Positions 2,370 to 22,762 are shown, counted from the stretch's first letter. The stretch: 64,000 bases of DNA from Phycisphaerales bacterium (GCA_043101845.1 JBICHN010000011.1:756730-820729), one strand, 5' to 3'. Made by a program: numbers and translations. Notes: generated from the letters alone by a model not told the origin.

Positions 2370-3513
2370 GATCAAGCGTTTGCACGACGAGATCGATTTC
2401 TCGATCCTCAAGCGTCGTGAAGAAAGGCAACGCGATCGTCCGGTGACTGACCGACTCGGTGATCGGAAAGGAGCCGGGCTCAAAGCCGAATCGCTCCCGA
2501 TAGAACGGTTGGAGATGGATGGGGGGGAAGTAGTTGCTCACGCCGATGTCATGTCGGCGCATCCCCGCGATGATGCGGTCGCGCTCGTCCGCGGTAAACT
2601 CGTTGTTCATGCGGACGACGAAGACGAACCAGCTCATTTCCGTGTTCGCGTCGACCGTGGGCAAAATAATGTCCGACGAACCGAGCATGCGGTTGATGTA
2701 CCGGCTGGCTACATAGGCCCGTCGTTCGAGCAGGTCGGGCAGGCGCTTCATCTGCGCGATCCCGAGCGCCGCCTGAATCTCGCTCATCCGGTAGTTGTAC
2801 CCGAGCCGTGGGTGCGCGAGCCAGGAGCCGAGCTCATTCGACTCGCCGCCGACGGCGCGGCCCTGATTTCGGAGAGAACGGCAGAAGTCCGCGAGCCGCT
2901 CTTCGTCGGTCACGATCATGCCGCCTTCGCCGGTCGTGATCTGCTTGTTCGGATAGAAGCCGAACACGCCGAGGCGGCCGAACGACCCGATCGGTCGGCC
3001 CTTATACACGCCGCCGAGTCCTTCGCAGCAGTCTTCGACGAGCGCGATCTCGTGCCGATTCGCGATGTTCGCGAGCTCATCCATACCCGAGGGATTACCG
3101 AACGCCTCGACGGCGAGAATCGCCTTCGTACGCGAAGTGATCGCGGCGCTTACCCGGTCCGGGTCGAGGTTCAGCGTGCGGGGATGGATGTCCACAAAGA
3201 CCGGCGTGGCGCCGACATAGAGAATCGCGTTCGAAGAGGCGATGAACGAGAACGGCGTGGTGATTACTTCATCGCCAGGGCCGATGCCAAGGGCGAGCAG
3301 CGCGAGGTGAAGCCCGGCGGTTCCGCTCGAGACGGCGACGGCGTGTTCGCGTCCGGTGAGCTCGGCGACCCGCGCTTCGAATCCCTCCTGCATAGGACCG
3401 ATGCTGAGTCGACCGCTCCGAAGCGTCTGCGTGACATATTCGACTTCAAGTTCGGTGATGTCGGGCCGGCTGAGGGGGATTTCGCCGTTGCTCATTCTGC
3501 GGAGTCCATGCAA
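2335..3513 (-). CDS. DegT/DnrJ/EryC1/StrS-family PLP-dependent sugar aminotransferase
   Basis: The N-terminus IPLSRPDITELEVEYVTQTLRSGRLSIGP, followed by AVSSGTAGLHLALLALGIGPGDEVITTPFSFIASSN and NYRMSEIQAALGIAQM, is characteristic of this family. Confidence 0.85.
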   Translation of the reverse strand: MHGLRRMSNGEIPLSRPDITELEVEYVTQTLRSGRLSIGPMQEGFEARVAELTGREHAVAVSSGTAGLHLALLALGIGPGDEVITTPFSFIASSNAILYVGATPVFVDIHPRTLNLDPDRVSAAITSRTKAILAVEAFGNPSGMDELANIANRHEIALVEDCCEGLGGVYKGRPIGSFGRLGVFGFYPNKQITTGEGGMIVTDEERLADFCRSLRNQGRAVGGESNELGSWLAHPRLGYNYRMSEIQAALGIAQMKRLPDLLERRAYVASRYINRMLGSSDIILPTVDANTEMSWFVFVVRMNNEFTADERDRIIAGMRRHDIGVSNYFPPIHLQPFYRERFGFEPGSFPITESVSHRTIALPFFTTLEDREIDLVVQTLDLMIQRETFSRR

Positions 3514-18792: not shown

Positions 18793-19539
18793 TCAATCAT
18801 CACGCTGACGAAGCGTAGTCGGACGGGTGGTCGAGTCAATCAGTCGCCGGTCGCCTCCGGGGTCGAGGTCGCCCCCGGGCGCCGACGACACCGAAGGCTT
18901 CGGCGGATCGCTCGCTCCACCGACGCGGACCACGAGGACGCCGATGCCGAAGAGGAGGAGCATGTCGGCGATGTTGAAGACCCAGGGGAACACCTCCGGA
19001 CTGCCCCCCGGCCAGTTCAGTCCGAAGGGGAGGGACATTCCCGGGAAGATGTTGAGGAAGTCGCGAACGACACCGTAGGTCCACCGGTCGTAGAGATTAC
19101 CCGCGGCGCCGGCGAGCACGCACCCGATCGCGATATGGAGCAGCCGGTCGCGGGCGGTCGTCTTGAAGGCGAAGATCACTCCGCCGGCGACCATGGCGAG
19201 CAGCGTGAACACCATGAAGAAGAATCGCTGTCCGGGGCCGATGCCGAAGACGGCGCCGTGGTTGACCACGAGCTTGAAACTGAGCAGCTTTGGAATGACG
19301 ACGACTTCGCGATGCGCTGGAGCCGACCAGGTCGGATCCTGCAGAATCTCCGCCCGGTCGAGCGCCACGGGCGCGCCGGCTACGCGTTCGAACGCGACCC
19401 TCTTGCTCGTGAGATCGACGCCGAGACCGATGAGAAACGCCATCAACAGGGTGACCCACGCGACCATCGATCGGGCCGCGGGGAGCGGGCGCGTTCGTGA
19501 GAGCGTGGCGGCGGTTTCGGTCGGGGCGGTAGCAGTCAT
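18793..19539 (-). CDS. lspA: Lipoprotein signal peptidase (signal peptidase II)
   Basis: Motifs are LVVNHGAVFGIG, LAGAAGNLYDRWTYGVVRDFL and WPGGSPEVFPWVFNIADMLL. Four TM helices. Confidence 0.9.
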   Translation of the reverse strand: MTATAPTETAATLSRTRPLPAARSMVAWVTLLMAFLIGLGVDLTSKRVAFERVAGAPVALDRAEILQDPTWSAPAHREVVVIPKLLSFKLVVNHGAVFGIGPGQRFFFMVFTLLAMVAGGVIFAFKTTARDRLLHIAIGCVLAGAAGNLYDRWTYGVVRDFLNIFPGMSLPFGLNWPGGSPEVFPWVFNIADMLLLFGIGVLVVRVGGASDPPKPSVSSAPGGDLDPGGDRRLIDSTTRPTTLRQRDD

Positions 19540-19633: not shown

Positions 19634-20632
19634 TTAGAGTCCGGAAAGCCCGAGACGCCGATCGCGCTCGCGCGCGGCTTCGATGCTCAGTCGCGCCCAG
19701 GGTTTCGCCTCGAGCCGCGGGAGGCCGATCGCCTGTCCGGTCGCTTCGCAGATGCCGTAGGTCTTCTCGGCGATGCGTCCGAGCGCCGCGTCAATCTCCT
19801 TGAGGGTCTCACGCTCCGAAGCGGCGAGCTGGAGCAGGAAGTCCTGGTCGTACGCGTCGCTGCCCACATCGGCCGAGTGCGTCGGCATGTGCGAAATCTC
19901 GCCCGATGAATTGCCGCGGAGGGCCTCGGTCTCCATCGAGGTCACATCGCCGATGATCTCCGCCCGCTTCCGACGGAGGAGCTCACGGAAGTAGTTGAGT
20001 TCCTTTCGGCTCAATGGCGTCTTCTTGAGCCGCGGAGCGTCTGCGGAGGCCGAGGACGCAGCCGGGACCGAGGTCAGCGTGTTGCGTCCGACCTTCTTCT
20101 TCGAACCACCGGCTGACCTTGTGGTCTTTTTCTTTCCAGTCGAAGGCTTCTTCGCGGTCTTCCTCGACGACTTTCCGGGGGTCGAAGCCGCCTTCGCGGC
20201 CGTCTTCTTGCTGGTCGTCTTCTTCCGAGTCGTCTTCTTCCCGGCCTTCCGGGTGGACTTCGCCTTCGCCTTCGTCTTCGCGGCGCCGGCCGTCTTCTTC
20301 CGCGTGGATTTCTTCTTCGACGCGACCTTCTTCTTCGAGGTCTTCTTCTTCGAAGAACTCTTCTTCGTACCGCTCCCGGAGGCGGTAGTCGAGGTCTTCT
20401 TGCGCGTTGGCGTCTTCTTCCGGGACGCGGAAGCGGTCTTCTTCTTCGAGCGGCTCGTGCTCCGCGTCGAAGACGAGGCGGGTCGCCTCGTCGTCTTCTT
20501 TGTCTTCTTCGCCAACTTGGGATTCCCTCGAAACTTGAGGTCCGGCCTGGCGCCTGTGCCGCACCTCCGGCCCTCTCGACGAGGAGGCCAAAAATGCGGC
20601 CGAACAATACCCGGAGCCGCGCCGAGGGTCAA
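19634..20632 (-). CDS. DksA/TraR-family protein with long lysine-rich (histone H1-like) N-terminal region
   Basis: The C-terminal 125 aa are DksA-like: LSRKELNYFRELLRRKRAEI...HSADVGSDAYDQDFLLQLAASERETLKEIDAALGRIAEKTYGICEATGQAIGLPRLEAKPWARLSIEA. The preceding approximately 145 aa are K/T/S/A repeats (KKTKKTTRR...SKKKTSKKKVASKKKSTRKKTAGAAKTKAKAK...). A likely real start is TTG 20515 (LAKKTKK), which has GAGGGA 8 nt upstream. Confidence 0.75.
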   Translation of the reverse strand: MTLGAAPGIVRPHFWPPRREGRRCGTGARPDLKFRGNPKLAKKTKKTTRRPASSSTRSTSRSKKKTASASRKKTPTRKKTSTTASGSGTKKSSSKKKTSKKKVASKKKSTRKKTAGAAKTKAKAKSTRKAGKKTTRKKTTSKKTAAKAASTPGKSSRKTAKKPSTGKKKTTRSAGGSKKKVGRNTLTSVPAASSASADAPRLKKTPLSRKELNYFRELLRRKRAEIIGDVTSMETEALRGNSSGEISHMPTHSADVGSDAYDQDFLLQLAASERETLKEIDAALGRIAEKTYGICEATGQAIGLPRLEAKPWARLSIEAARERDRRLGLSGL

Positions 20633-20671
20633 CGCGGGCTTCCGCTTCGAAACCGGCTTCGATCAACCGAT

Positions 20672-21673
20672 TCAGGCGCCGGCGGCTTCGGCGACGACAC
20701 CCATCGTTCGGAATCGCTCATATCGGCGACGCACGAGGTTCTCGACCTTGAACCGCTTGAGCTCCCGAAGATTGTCGGTGATCCAGCGTTCAAGATTCTC
20801 GGCGGCCTTCGCCCGATCCCGATGGGCGCCCCCCGGCGGCTCCTCGACGATGTCGTCGATCACGCCCAGCTTCAGATTCTGCTCGGCCGTGAGATGGAGC
20901 GCGTCCGCGGCGGCTTCGTTCGTCGTCGGATTCGCCGTCTTCCACAGAATCGCGGCGCAGCCCTCGGGGCTGATCACCGAATACCACGCGTACCGCATCA
21001 TGGCGACACGGTCGGCGACCGCGATGCCGAGGGCGCCGCCCGATCCGCCTTCACCGATGATGACACTCACGATCGGCGTCTTCAGGCGGCTCATCTCGCG
21101 CAGGTTCACCGCGATCGCCTCGGCCTGACCGCGCTCTTCGGCGCCGATCCCGGGATACGCCCCGGGCGTATCGACGAGGGTCACGATGGGCAATTCGAAC
21201 TTCTCGGCGAGCTGCATGTTCTTGAGGGCTTTGCGGTACCCCTCCGGGTGGGCGCAACCGAAGTTGCAGAGCATCCGCTCGTTCGTGTCACGACCTTTGC
21301 GGTGGGCGACGACCATGACCTTGTGCGGCCCGATCCGCGCGAAGCCGGTGAGGATCGCCGGATCGTCTCCGAAGTGCCGGTCACCGTGAAGCTGGCAGAA
21401 GTCTTTGCAGATCAGGCGGAGGTAGTCGGTCGACTGAGGCCGTTTCGGATGACGGGCGACCTTGCTCACGATCTGCCAGGCGGTGAGGCCGCCGTAGATC
21501 TCCGCGAGCTTCGTCTCGTGCTCGCGACGCACGGCGGCGACCTCGTCCTCGCCCGCCCCCGACGCTTCGAGCTCACGGAGGCGTTCCTCGAGTTCGACCA
21601 GAGGCCGCTCGAACTCCGGGCGCGAGGGGTCAAAGGTCGACGCGGCGCCGTTCGGTTTCGTCGTGTCCGCCAT
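20672..21673 (-). CDS. accA: Acetyl-CoA carboxylase carboxyltransferase alpha subunit
   Basis: RHPKRPQSTDY, FGDDPAILTGFARIGPHKVMVVAHRKG, FGCAHPEGYRKALKNMQLAEKFELPIVTLVDTPGAYPGIGAEERGQAEAIA. Confidence 0.95.
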   Translation of the reverse strand: MADTTKPNGAASTFDPSRPEFERPLVELEERLRELEASGAGEDEVAAVRREHETKLAEIYGGLTAWQIVSKVARHPKRPQSTDYLRLICKDFCQLHGDRHFGDDPAILTGFARIGPHKVMVVAHRKGRDTNERMLCNFGCAHPEGYRKALKNMQLAEKFELPIVTLVDTPGAYPGIGAEERGQAEAIAVNLREMSRLKTPIVSVIIGEGGSGGALGIAVADRVAMMRYAWYSVISPEGCAAILWKTANPTTNEAAADALHLTAEQNLKLGVIDDIVEEPPGGAHRDRAKAAENLERWITDNLRELKRFKVENLVRRRYERFRTMGVVAEAAGA

Positions 21674-21764: not shown

Positions 21765-21792
21765 ACGCCGGCGGCCTTCCGGCCGCCGGCGT
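21765..21792 (-). terminator. Intrinsic terminator after the first DUF1559-like gene
   Basis: ACGCCGGCGGCC (21765-21776) and GGCCGCCGGCGT (21781-21792) form a 12-bp perfect stem with a TTCC loop. The minus-strand tail reads TCTTTTTCCC. It lies about 60 nt after the stop at 21854. Confidence 0.6.
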
Positions 21793-21853: not shown

Positions 21854-22762
21854 TCAGTTCGACGGATCCCAGAACGGGTCCTGGTCGCCGTTGTCATCGC
21901 TGTCGAAGACCGCGAGGAAGATATCGACGCCGCCGTTGACGGTGCCGGTGCCAGTGACCTGGTCCTGCTCGTTGAAGATGTTGTCCGCGAGCTGCGACTG
22001 GGTCGCGGTCGCGTCGGTCGGCTTGTAGGTGATTCCGGGCGGGGCGAACGCGAGTTCGGCGCCGTCTTCACCGAGGCCGAGGCCGACCTGCTCCTGGAAG
22101 CTCTCGACATGGTTGTCGTTGTAGCCGACATTGCCCGACCACAGCGTACGGGAGCCGTGGATGAGGTACGAGGTCGACTGCTTGTCCGGAATACCTTCCT
22201 CGGGACCGCGATCGGAGAGAACCGCGAAGCTCGAGTTCAGCGAGTCCGTCCACTCCTTGTTGAAGCGGGCGCCTTCGAGGGAGATGTTCGCGTAGGAGAC
22301 ATTGCTGCCGTCCTGGCCGCCGGTCGCCTCAATGTTACACTGAAACTCCGGATCCCACTGCCAGGTGTCCTGGATGCGGGTGCCGGTGCCGGTGCCGTAG
22401 TCATAGTCGTCCATGACCGAGACGGCGCCGTTCGCCTCGCTCGGGCAGACCGCGAGCTCAGGCGAGTAGTAGTTGTTGAAGATGAGCATCGAGTGAATGT
22501 TCGCCGTCGAGTTGCCCGGCTGGTTACATTCCTGAGCCGTCTCCTGGCTGAACTCGAGCGGCGTCGGGAAACGACCGCCGAAGTCCTGCGCCCACTGGAC
22601 CCAGTTCTGGTGAATCTGCTTCACCTGCGTCGAGCACTTGATGAACTTGGCTCGAGCGCGGGCGCGGCCGAGGGCCGGCAGCAGAATGCCGATGAGCAGC
22701 GCGATGATCGCGATGACCACGAGCAGCTCAATAAGGGTAAAACCCTTGCGGTTACGGTGCAT
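21854..22762 (-). CDS. Prepilin-type N-terminal cleavage/methylation domain protein, DUF1559-like (type II pseudopilin-like)
   Basis: [35 protein letters not shown] is a class III signal peptide. The C-terminal block [21 protein letters not shown] sits where the family's H-X9-DG-type motif lies. Confidence 0.85.

Follow-up and report, generated by a model that had tools for sequence, protein, structure and literature searches.

An lspA-linked, one-cysteine DksA-type protein with a lysine-rich N-terminal tail from a Phycisphaerales bacterium

The locus and its lysine-rich gene

The stretch of DNA analysed here, called the window below, comprises 64,000 nucleotides (nt) from a Phycisphaerales bacterium (GCA_043101845.1 JBICHN010000011.1:756730-820729), and our subject is a gene on its minus strand in which a long lysine-rich tract precedes a DksA-like domain. 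A preliminary description, made from the sequence of the window, had reported an open reading frame (ORF) at 19634-20632, and this ORF is present on the minus strand as described, with 332 codons running from a TTG at 20632 to a stop codon at 19634-19636. The architecture proposed for it, a polycationic tail joined to a DksA-like coiled coil and finger, is likewise borne out, i.e., the lysine-rich tract is real and lies in frame with the domain. The extent given for the ORF stands only in part: the frame is open from 20632, but coding probably begins at TTG 20515, the alternative start mentioned in the same description, and the product most likely has 293 amino acids (aa). The features of the gene are listed here with the evidence for each.

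19634..20515, minus strand: best-supported coding sequence, 293 aa plus stop codon, TTG read as formylmethionine (M-AKKTKKTTRR...); periodicity of G+C content at third codon positions (GC3), homologue N-termini, Shine-Dalgarno-like (SD-like) motif
20021..20515, minus strand: polycationic low-complexity tail, residues 1-165; composition, charge, disorder, 15-nt periodicity
19637..20020, minus strand: DksA-like domain, residues 166-293; Pfam PF01258, sequence matches in the PDB, AlphaFold2 model, Foldseek
19769..20008, minus strand: coiled-coil hairpin, helices 170-200 and 217-249; DSSP on the AlphaFold2 model
19856..19915, minus strand: coiled-coil tip, residues 201-220 (GNSSGEISHMPTHSADVGSD); H213, A215, D216, G218 and D220 family-invariant in alignments
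19664..19756, minus strand: one-cysteine (C1) finger region, residues 254-284, C256xxT259-x17-S277xxA280; gap-free register, clade tabulation
20516..20603, minus strand: probable 5' untranslated leader; flat G+C content, negative coding score, SD-like GAGGG at 20524-20528, 8 nt before TTG 20515
20604..20632, minus strand: sigma-70-like promoter match TTGACC-17-TATTGT, the first TTG of the ORF forming the -35 element; consensus match only

Reading frame and translation start

The lysine-rich open frame is not a chance one, because its GC3 is gene-like and the same in-frame basic extension is found in nearly all homologous loci. GC3 of the lysine frame is 0.84, compared with 0.82-0.87 for the neighbouring genes, and it is 0.80 in the tail codons other than those for lysine; lysine itself is encoded by AAG in 46 of 48 tail codons, and the reference genes use AAG for 89% of theirs. 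In each of the 74 homologous genome loci that do not run off the end of a contig, the lysine frame reads through into the DksA domain; an acidic frame is open in 18 of them and an arginine frame in 8.

The first indication of the start codon is that GC3 periodicity sets in at about 20515, with the 117 nt upstream being flat (G+C of 0.67/0.67/0.64 by codon position) and scoring negatively for coding. In the window, the start stands in the context TCGAGGGAATCCCAAG-TTG-GCG-AAG-AAG, which is read M-A-K-K, and database-called homologues likewise begin with MAKK, VAKK or MAKS. The tail opens, in 58 of the 74 loci, with a start codon and then A-K-K or a near match to it, the codon being GTG in 47, TTG in 9 and ATG in 2. 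When starts were picked by a slightly broader pattern, which gave 65, an SD-like motif was located 5-18 nt before 53 of them (17% at random control positions), and in the homologous loci this motif is often CGAGGG, as in the window. The periodicity, the flat leader and the motif followed by GTG/TTG-A-K-K in homologous loci thus favour TTG 20515 as the start. We would like to note that the start of this family is almost always non-ATG; the bias might reflect translational control or, in part, an artefact of the start-picking rule.

A start at TTG 20632 was considered and rejected on account of the flat G+C content and negative coding score of the leader that it would include, and of the TTG itself being the -35 hexamer of the promoter-like match (20632-20604), the sole such site in 3.2 kb where 0.2 would be expected. 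Besides TTG 20515, the only in-frame starts for the tail are TTG 20632 and TTG 20014, so the tail is translated either wholly or not at all.

The question of whether the tail is translated gains weight from a public contig (L001), identical to the window, in which an automatic caller split this region into an acidic-frame ORF of 193 aa and a DksA of 100 aa beginning at Met194. These calls (2143-2724 and 2771-3073 of the contig) correspond to 19983-20564 and 19634-19936 of the window, minus strand. The full extent of the acidic ORF in the window is as follows.

19983..20666, minus strand: overlapping acidic-frame (E/D-rich) ORF; shadow of the AAG-rich tail, no Pfam match

Generic codon scores fail to tell the lysine frame from the acidic frame: codon usage gives 0.15 and 0.56 bits per codon, respectively, and synonymous preference 0.31 and 0.34. 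Because these scores do not separate the two, the frame was decided by the comparative evidence together with the GAA/GAG skew of the acidic frame, in which 41 of the 47 Glu codons are GAA, as opposed to 42% in the reference genes. With this skew, with openness in only 18 of the 74 loci and with no match in Pfam, the acidic ORF was rejected as a gene.

GTG and TTG starts and AAG repeats create attractive shadow frames, and because of this automatic callers truncate or mis-frame genes of this family; many database entries therefore under-report the tail, which is probably under-annotated in the databases. Several close homologues, among them the protein P0003 and those of the loci L003 and L005, have likewise been called with an ATG close to the domain as the start, despite a basic in-frame extension upstream.

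The lysine-rich tail

The tail is composed of 29% K, 18% T, 18% S and 14% A, with D and E together at about 1%, and is the sole K-rich tract across the six frames of the window. Its calculated net charge is about +59 with an isoelectric point (pI) of 12; the DksA domain is mildly acidic, with a pI of 5.75. The DNA of the tail repeats in tandem with a period of 15 nt, matching pentapeptide units such as KKTTx and SKKKx in the protein. In the AlphaFold2 model, it has a predicted local distance difference test (pLDDT) score of about 42-55 and no secondary structure, and it is thus predicted to be intrinsically disordered.

The tail had been likened to eukaryotic H1 tails and to the chlamydial nucleoid proteins Hc1 and Hc2. 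The likeness holds for composition and for the pentapeptide periodicity; it does not extend to homology: searched against Pfam, the tail gave nothing at E <= 1, including for Hc2 (PF07382) and linker histone, and homology to Hc2 or H1 was accordingly rejected. One homologue, P0113, carries a precomputed PF07382 match.

The DksA-type domain

The C-terminal region of about 128 residues was found to be DksA/TraR-like, as had been proposed. Pfam PF01258 matches residues 291-324 of the 332-aa ORF with 39.1 bits (gathering cutoff 24.9, E 7.5e-10), and the DksA-like N-domain PF21173 gives a weak match. Sequence matches to solved structures include Chlamydia trachomatis DksA (6ptg, E 1.2e-14), Pseudomonas aeruginosa DksA2 (4ijj, 2.5e-12) and Escherichia coli DksA (1tjl, 2.2e-8). 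In an AlphaFold2 model generated from a 64-sequence alignment, residues 166-290 reach a pLDDT of 90-98 and form two long helices and a small globular end, with lower confidence for the tip loop (201-216). When this model was compared to the PDB with Foldseek, the top eight matches were all DksA structures. The best of these was 4IJJ (target-normalised template modelling score 0.78, root-mean-square deviation 2.2), followed by free E. coli DksA (1tjl), the RNA polymerase complexes 7KHI and 5VSW, and then 6PTG. On these matches and the predicted structure, the domain is placed in the DksA/TraR superfamily, with a DksA fold in the model. A tblastn search of a plasmid collection retrieved mostly proteobacterial TraR/DksA genes at 32-35% identity among the matches listed; four further matches, outside that list, come from Streptomyces.

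The coiled-coil tip is the most conserved stretch of the family (S-H-M-P-x-H-x-A-D-V-G-S-D), and its core, H-x-A-D-x-G-[ST]-D, is common to the window family and to Chlamydia DksA.

A large family in Planctomycetota

A word-indexed search with the domain alone as query yielded 480 proteins, many of which are 176-258 aa long with basic N-termini of the MAKK type. An exhaustive search of 1.84 billion representatives gave 9657 matches at E <= 1e-3, of which 174 reach E <= 1e-30. We analysed 146 of the top 150 representatives, the other four being already known from the word-indexed search. An N-terminal extension of at least 50 aa is present in 141 of these 146 (median 181 aa, maximum 335), and the median composition of the extensions is 20% K and 5% D+E. 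The fusion, which the preliminary description had called unusual, is therefore the norm in its own lineage, and DdbA of Streptomyces coelicolor, discussed below, provides a precedent.

Scanning a single genome for each GTDB species gave 80 loci, or 81 with the contig identical to the window. In the fetched loci, domains were located by local tblastn, as a strict regular expression missed most of them; the best of the 80 is 62% identical over the domain. A K/R-rich stretch covers at least 60 aa in 69 of the 81 loci and at least 100 aa in 48. Of the 80 loci, all but three bear a Planctomycetota label, in most cases as Phycisphaerales, Phycisphaerae or Tepidisphaerales; of the three exceptions, one is labelled only "uncultured bacterium" and two Vicinamibacteraceae. 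The latter two (L004, CAZPFK010000058.1, and L005, WYBR01000109.1) have the locus at 60-65% identity under this Acidobacteriota label, and one isolate is named "PLA1"; their labels or binning are probably wrong. Judged by these sequence comparisons, the window protein is typical of a large family in Planctomycetota and belongs with its more lysine-rich members. Names given to its members in databases and clusters are generic ("TraR/DksA family", "RNA polymerase-binding transcription factor DksA"), and our literature search found no paper on a lysine-rich DksA family of planctomycetes.

Short motifs between tail and domain mark subsets of the family. In 17 of the 146 representatives, (D/N)GYV(V/I)(I/V)NGRRVR(R/M)I lies between the lysine-rich tail and the DksA domain; carriers of this GYV-type motif, which is absent from the window protein, include P0012, P0018, P0020, P0024, P0037, P0044 and P0086 and the loci L008, L013, L019, L021, L023, L075 and L077. 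Another linker, PPRVPYAAL...P(A/T)YDP...P(L/T)T..QLRKVK, occurs in P0023, P0033, P0057, P0060, P0063, P0081 and L038, and a third subset has the finger CLSA or CLSG with the linker AAAKLAA(A/L)AGL. Short linear motifs in the linkers are thus specific to clades.

A one-cysteine finger

In a gap-free alignment to the four finger cysteines of E. coli DksA (C114/C117/C135/C138), the window protein has C256-E-A-T259 and S277-I-E-A280. The canonical four-cysteine (C4) motif CxxC-x17-CxxC is therefore replaced by CxxT-x17-SxxA, and the reduction of the four cysteines to one, already noted in the preliminary description, is upheld. The accompanying idea of a zinc finger lost by private degeneration is not, since the pattern CxxS/T-x17-C/S/TxxA defines a published zinc-independent C2/C1 class of DksA (PMC9126822) and every close homologue examined lacks C4. 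By its motif, the window finger fits the C1 zinc-independent class exactly. Among the 120 closest proteins, C4 occurs in none, the second position is nearly always T or S, the third is Cys in about half and the fourth is never Cys. Among the 146 representatives, C4 is again absent and CTSA, the pattern of the window, is the commonest (48 of 146).

Comparison with known systems

The zinc-free finger is of a known class, and the fusion, being the norm of its phylum, has a published analogue in DdbA (SCO2075) of S. coelicolor, a nucleoid protein whose N-domain is H1-like and binds DNA and whose C-domain is DksA-like (PMC3643593). The N-domain of DdbA binds and condenses DNA (binding was assayed by electrophoretic mobility shift) while the C-domain alone does not, overexpression of DdbA suppresses a relA phenotype, and its authors found orthologues only in streptomycetes (PMC3643593). 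As in the window protein, a basic N-domain of lysine-rich repeats precedes a DksA-like domain, the basic part differs in length between orthologues, and the gene adjoins that of lipoprotein signal peptidase. In contrast to the window protein, with its C1 finger and a tip that HMMER aligns as HxxDxG, DdbA keeps a C4 finger and equivalents of Asp71 and Asp74; its tail has 93 aa of S/T-A/T-A-K-K repeats, whereas that of the window has 165 aa and is K/T/S-rich with KKTTx and SKKKx repeats. DdbA also belongs to another phylum, and the comparison was made by its published description.

The closest solved structure by sequence is that of C. trachomatis DksA (CT407, 6PTG; 32% identity), which shares a one-cysteine zinc-free finger, the tip H-x-A-D-x-G-[ST]-D and an lspA gene immediately downstream. 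Chlamydia and Planctomycetota both belong to the Planctomycetes-Verrucomicrobia-Chlamydiae (PVC) superphylum. Chlamydia DksA differs in having no basic tail and in its upstream neighbour, which is nrdR and not accA; Chlamydia encodes the lysine-rich Hc1 and Hc2 as separate proteins. The best structural match, the zinc-independent C2 protein DksA2 of P. aeruginosa (4IJJ), resembles the window protein in the first half of its finger (CxxT) and in its Ala at the fourth position. It differs by a retained third Cys, a DxxDxA tip and the lack of a tail, as well as in being a zinc-starvation paralogue beside a C4 DksA of the same genome. Hc2 and the tails of eukaryotic H1 are, like the window tail, lysine-rich and disordered, with repeats on the pentapeptide scale that vary in number. 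In contrast, the window tail is T/S-rich and Pro-poor, comes with no winged-helix globular domain and shows no detectable homology to them.

Proposed function and alternatives

We think it fairly probable that the gene specifies, from TTG 20515, a 293-residue bipartite protein in which a DksA-type factor of the C1 class is joined to a disordered and most likely DNA-binding tail. Frame and start, domain identity, the C1 motif, conservation across the clade and synteny are observations made here, as are the fold and the disorder in their predicted form; that the tail binds DNA, that the domain binds RNA polymerase and that the two are coupled is what we infer by analogy. The C-terminal 128 residues would dock on RNA polymerase with the tip H-x-A-D-V-G-S-D entering the secondary channel, modulating initiation, and binding there should occur if the fold match to DksA in the complexes 7khi and 5vsw is a guide. 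The K-rich pentapeptide-repeat tail of 165 residues would bind DNA without sequence specificity, which is its most plausible role because a charge of about +59 and full disorder recall the N-domain of DdbA. So placed, the tail could keep the regulator on the nucleoid and raise its local concentration near transcribing polymerase, and it may help to compact DNA as the DdbA N-domain does. A coupling of nucleoid association to transcription control, as the preliminary description had suggested, is a reasonable proposal by this analogy and matches the one made for DdbA.

Several results weigh against this interpretation, in addition to the codon scores and the lack of a Pfam match for the tail given above. 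The K/T/S bias of the tail differs from the K/A/P bias of H1. For the domain, the NCBIfam models for YteA and DksA match with E-values of 1e-20 to 1e-16 and all remain below their curated cutoffs: the best, YteA/YlyA TIGR02890, scores 73.1 bits (cutoff 134.4), and the DksA equivalogs score 64.3 (TIGR02420, cutoff 115.5), 59.4 (NF033459, cutoff 105) and 34 (NF008045, cutoff 289). At the tip, the HMMER alignment to DksA2 sets H213-x-x-D216-x-G218 against the canonical DxxDxA (D71, D74, A76), and only the equivalent of D74 is therefore kept in that register; the MAFFT register relative to E. coli differs here, and the tip loop has low model confidence. The residues that we take to form ppGpp (guanosine tetraphosphate) site 2 of E. 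coli DksA, L95, K98, R129 and K139, correspond in gap-free register to T237, E240, K271 and A281. Lastly, Chlamydia DksA, the closest solved relative, failed to complement E. coli dksA (PMC9126822). Because the E. coli site-2 residues are mostly not conserved and Chlamydia DksA does not complement, a response to ppGpp, or a classical role in synergy with it, appears doubtful for the window protein.

The alternative that survives best, although we regard it as unlikely, accepts the bipartite protein and assigns the tail a ligand other than chromosomal DNA in the main, such as RNA, ribosomes or polyphosphate granules, lets it promote condensates, or makes of it mainly a regulated, possibly phosphorylated, S/T-rich disordered region. 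The tail is indeed a generic polycation with S and T together at 36%, predicted to be fully disordered and with no DNA-specific fold or motif in Pfam, and the H1-like protein AlgP is reported on polyphosphate granules (PMC9239181). Nevertheless, in DdbA, the sole protein of this architecture to have been tested, the tail binds DNA and condenses it (PMC3643593), and polycations of such charge density bind DNA in vitro almost irrespective of sequence.

That the protein has the DksA fold and yet is not a regulator of RNA polymerase in the manner of stringent-response DksA seems to us quite unlikely. It would then belong to a divergent lspA-linked subgroup with another target or effect, perhaps independent of ppGpp or acting at another step of transcription. 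The sub-cutoff equivalog scores, the HMMER reading of the tip as HxxDxG in place of DxxDxA, the unconserved site 2, the failed complementation by Chlamydia DksA (PMC9126822) and the tight, conserved linkage to lspA all speak for such a divergence. Against it, the predicted fold can be overlaid on polymerase-bound DksA (7khi, 5vsw), no segment of the family is more conserved than the tip loop, as would be expected of a probe of the secondary channel, and a C1 DksA of Rhodobacter is reported to be functional, as cited within PMC9126822.

Least credible, and in our estimate very improbable, is that the K-rich tract lies outside a DksA protein starting at TTG 20014 (126 aa) or ATG 19936 (100 aa), the upstream 500 nt being untranslated or the acidic-frame ORF a separate gene: the caller made exactly this split, the acidic frame has as good a generic codon score and TTG 20014 would yield a DksA of canonical length, but the lysine frame is contiguous with DksA in all loci where the acidic frame is open in 18 of 74, 141 of 146 representatives have called N-extensions starting with MAKK, VAKK or similar, an SD-like motif with GTG/TTG-AKK is conserved at the tail start, the acidic frame has its GAA excess and no Pfam match, and the available starts leave the tail translated entirely or not.

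If the tail of the bipartite protein binds DNA, the family would provide a second and far larger case, after Streptomyces DdbA, of a secondary-channel factor inside a histone-like nucleoid protein, and a phylum-wide design in bacteria noted for condensed nucleoids. A bolder version, which we rate as a long shot, is that the lspA-linked DksA of Planctomycetota is an abundant nucleoid protein whose tail compacts DNA while its domain gates RNA polymerase; phosphorylation of S and T might tune the tail, as it does that of eukaryotic H1, and this tail would have arisen independently of that of DdbA on an lspA-linked DksA lineage that is tail-less in Chlamydia. If true, compaction of the chromosome would be linked physically to global transcription. 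For annotation, the lesson is that tailed genes of this kind are truncated or mis-framed by automatic callers.

Gene neighbourhood and linkage to lspA

The genes around the DksA-type gene, together with an antisense ORF, are the following.

18793..19539, minus strand: lspA (signal peptidase II), 94 nt downstream of the gene; Pfam PF01252 (Peptidase_A8), E 2.5e-25
20672..21673, minus strand: accA, upstream neighbour; Pfam PF03255 (ACCA), E 1.5e-130
21854..22762, minus strand: pilin-like gene with a type IV pilin-like N-terminus, upstream of accA
19995..21128, plus strand: antisense F/V-rich ORF of 377 codons; a shadow ORF overlapping two supported minus-strand genes, including accA

Farther downstream of lspA, on the same strand, lies thrS. 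Across the 81 loci, lspA is directly downstream in 66 and accA upstream in 34, and in the window a promoter in the spacer between accA and dksA probably drives transcription of the gene together with lspA. The gene order in Chlamydia is nrdR-dksA-lspA (PMC9126822), and the lsp gene of S. coelicolor is SCO2074 (PMC4941574), a locus tag adjoining that of ddbA, SCO2075. With the Planctomycetota, Chlamydia and Streptomyces cases, a DksA-like gene is thus found paired with lspA in three phyla, a conserved linkage whose extent across phyla is drawn from the literature. In Bacillus subtilis, ylyA presumably also precedes lspA.

The sole match in an Rfam scan of the locus, to the L31 ribosomal protein leader at 20301-20341, plus strand (22.5 bits against a gathering cutoff of 33.2, E 0.034), was judged to be due to chance; it sits antisense within the lysine-rich coding tract, in repetitive CTTCTT sequence. 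The N-terminal motif of the pilin-like gene is of a kind abundant in Planctomycetota. Between this gene and accA stands a strong terminator-like hairpin (21765-21792, minus strand), whose stem has 12 pairs, 11 being G-C, and which precedes a run of T; its position there suggests that accA, possibly together with dksA-lspA, forms a transcription unit separate from the pilin-like gene.

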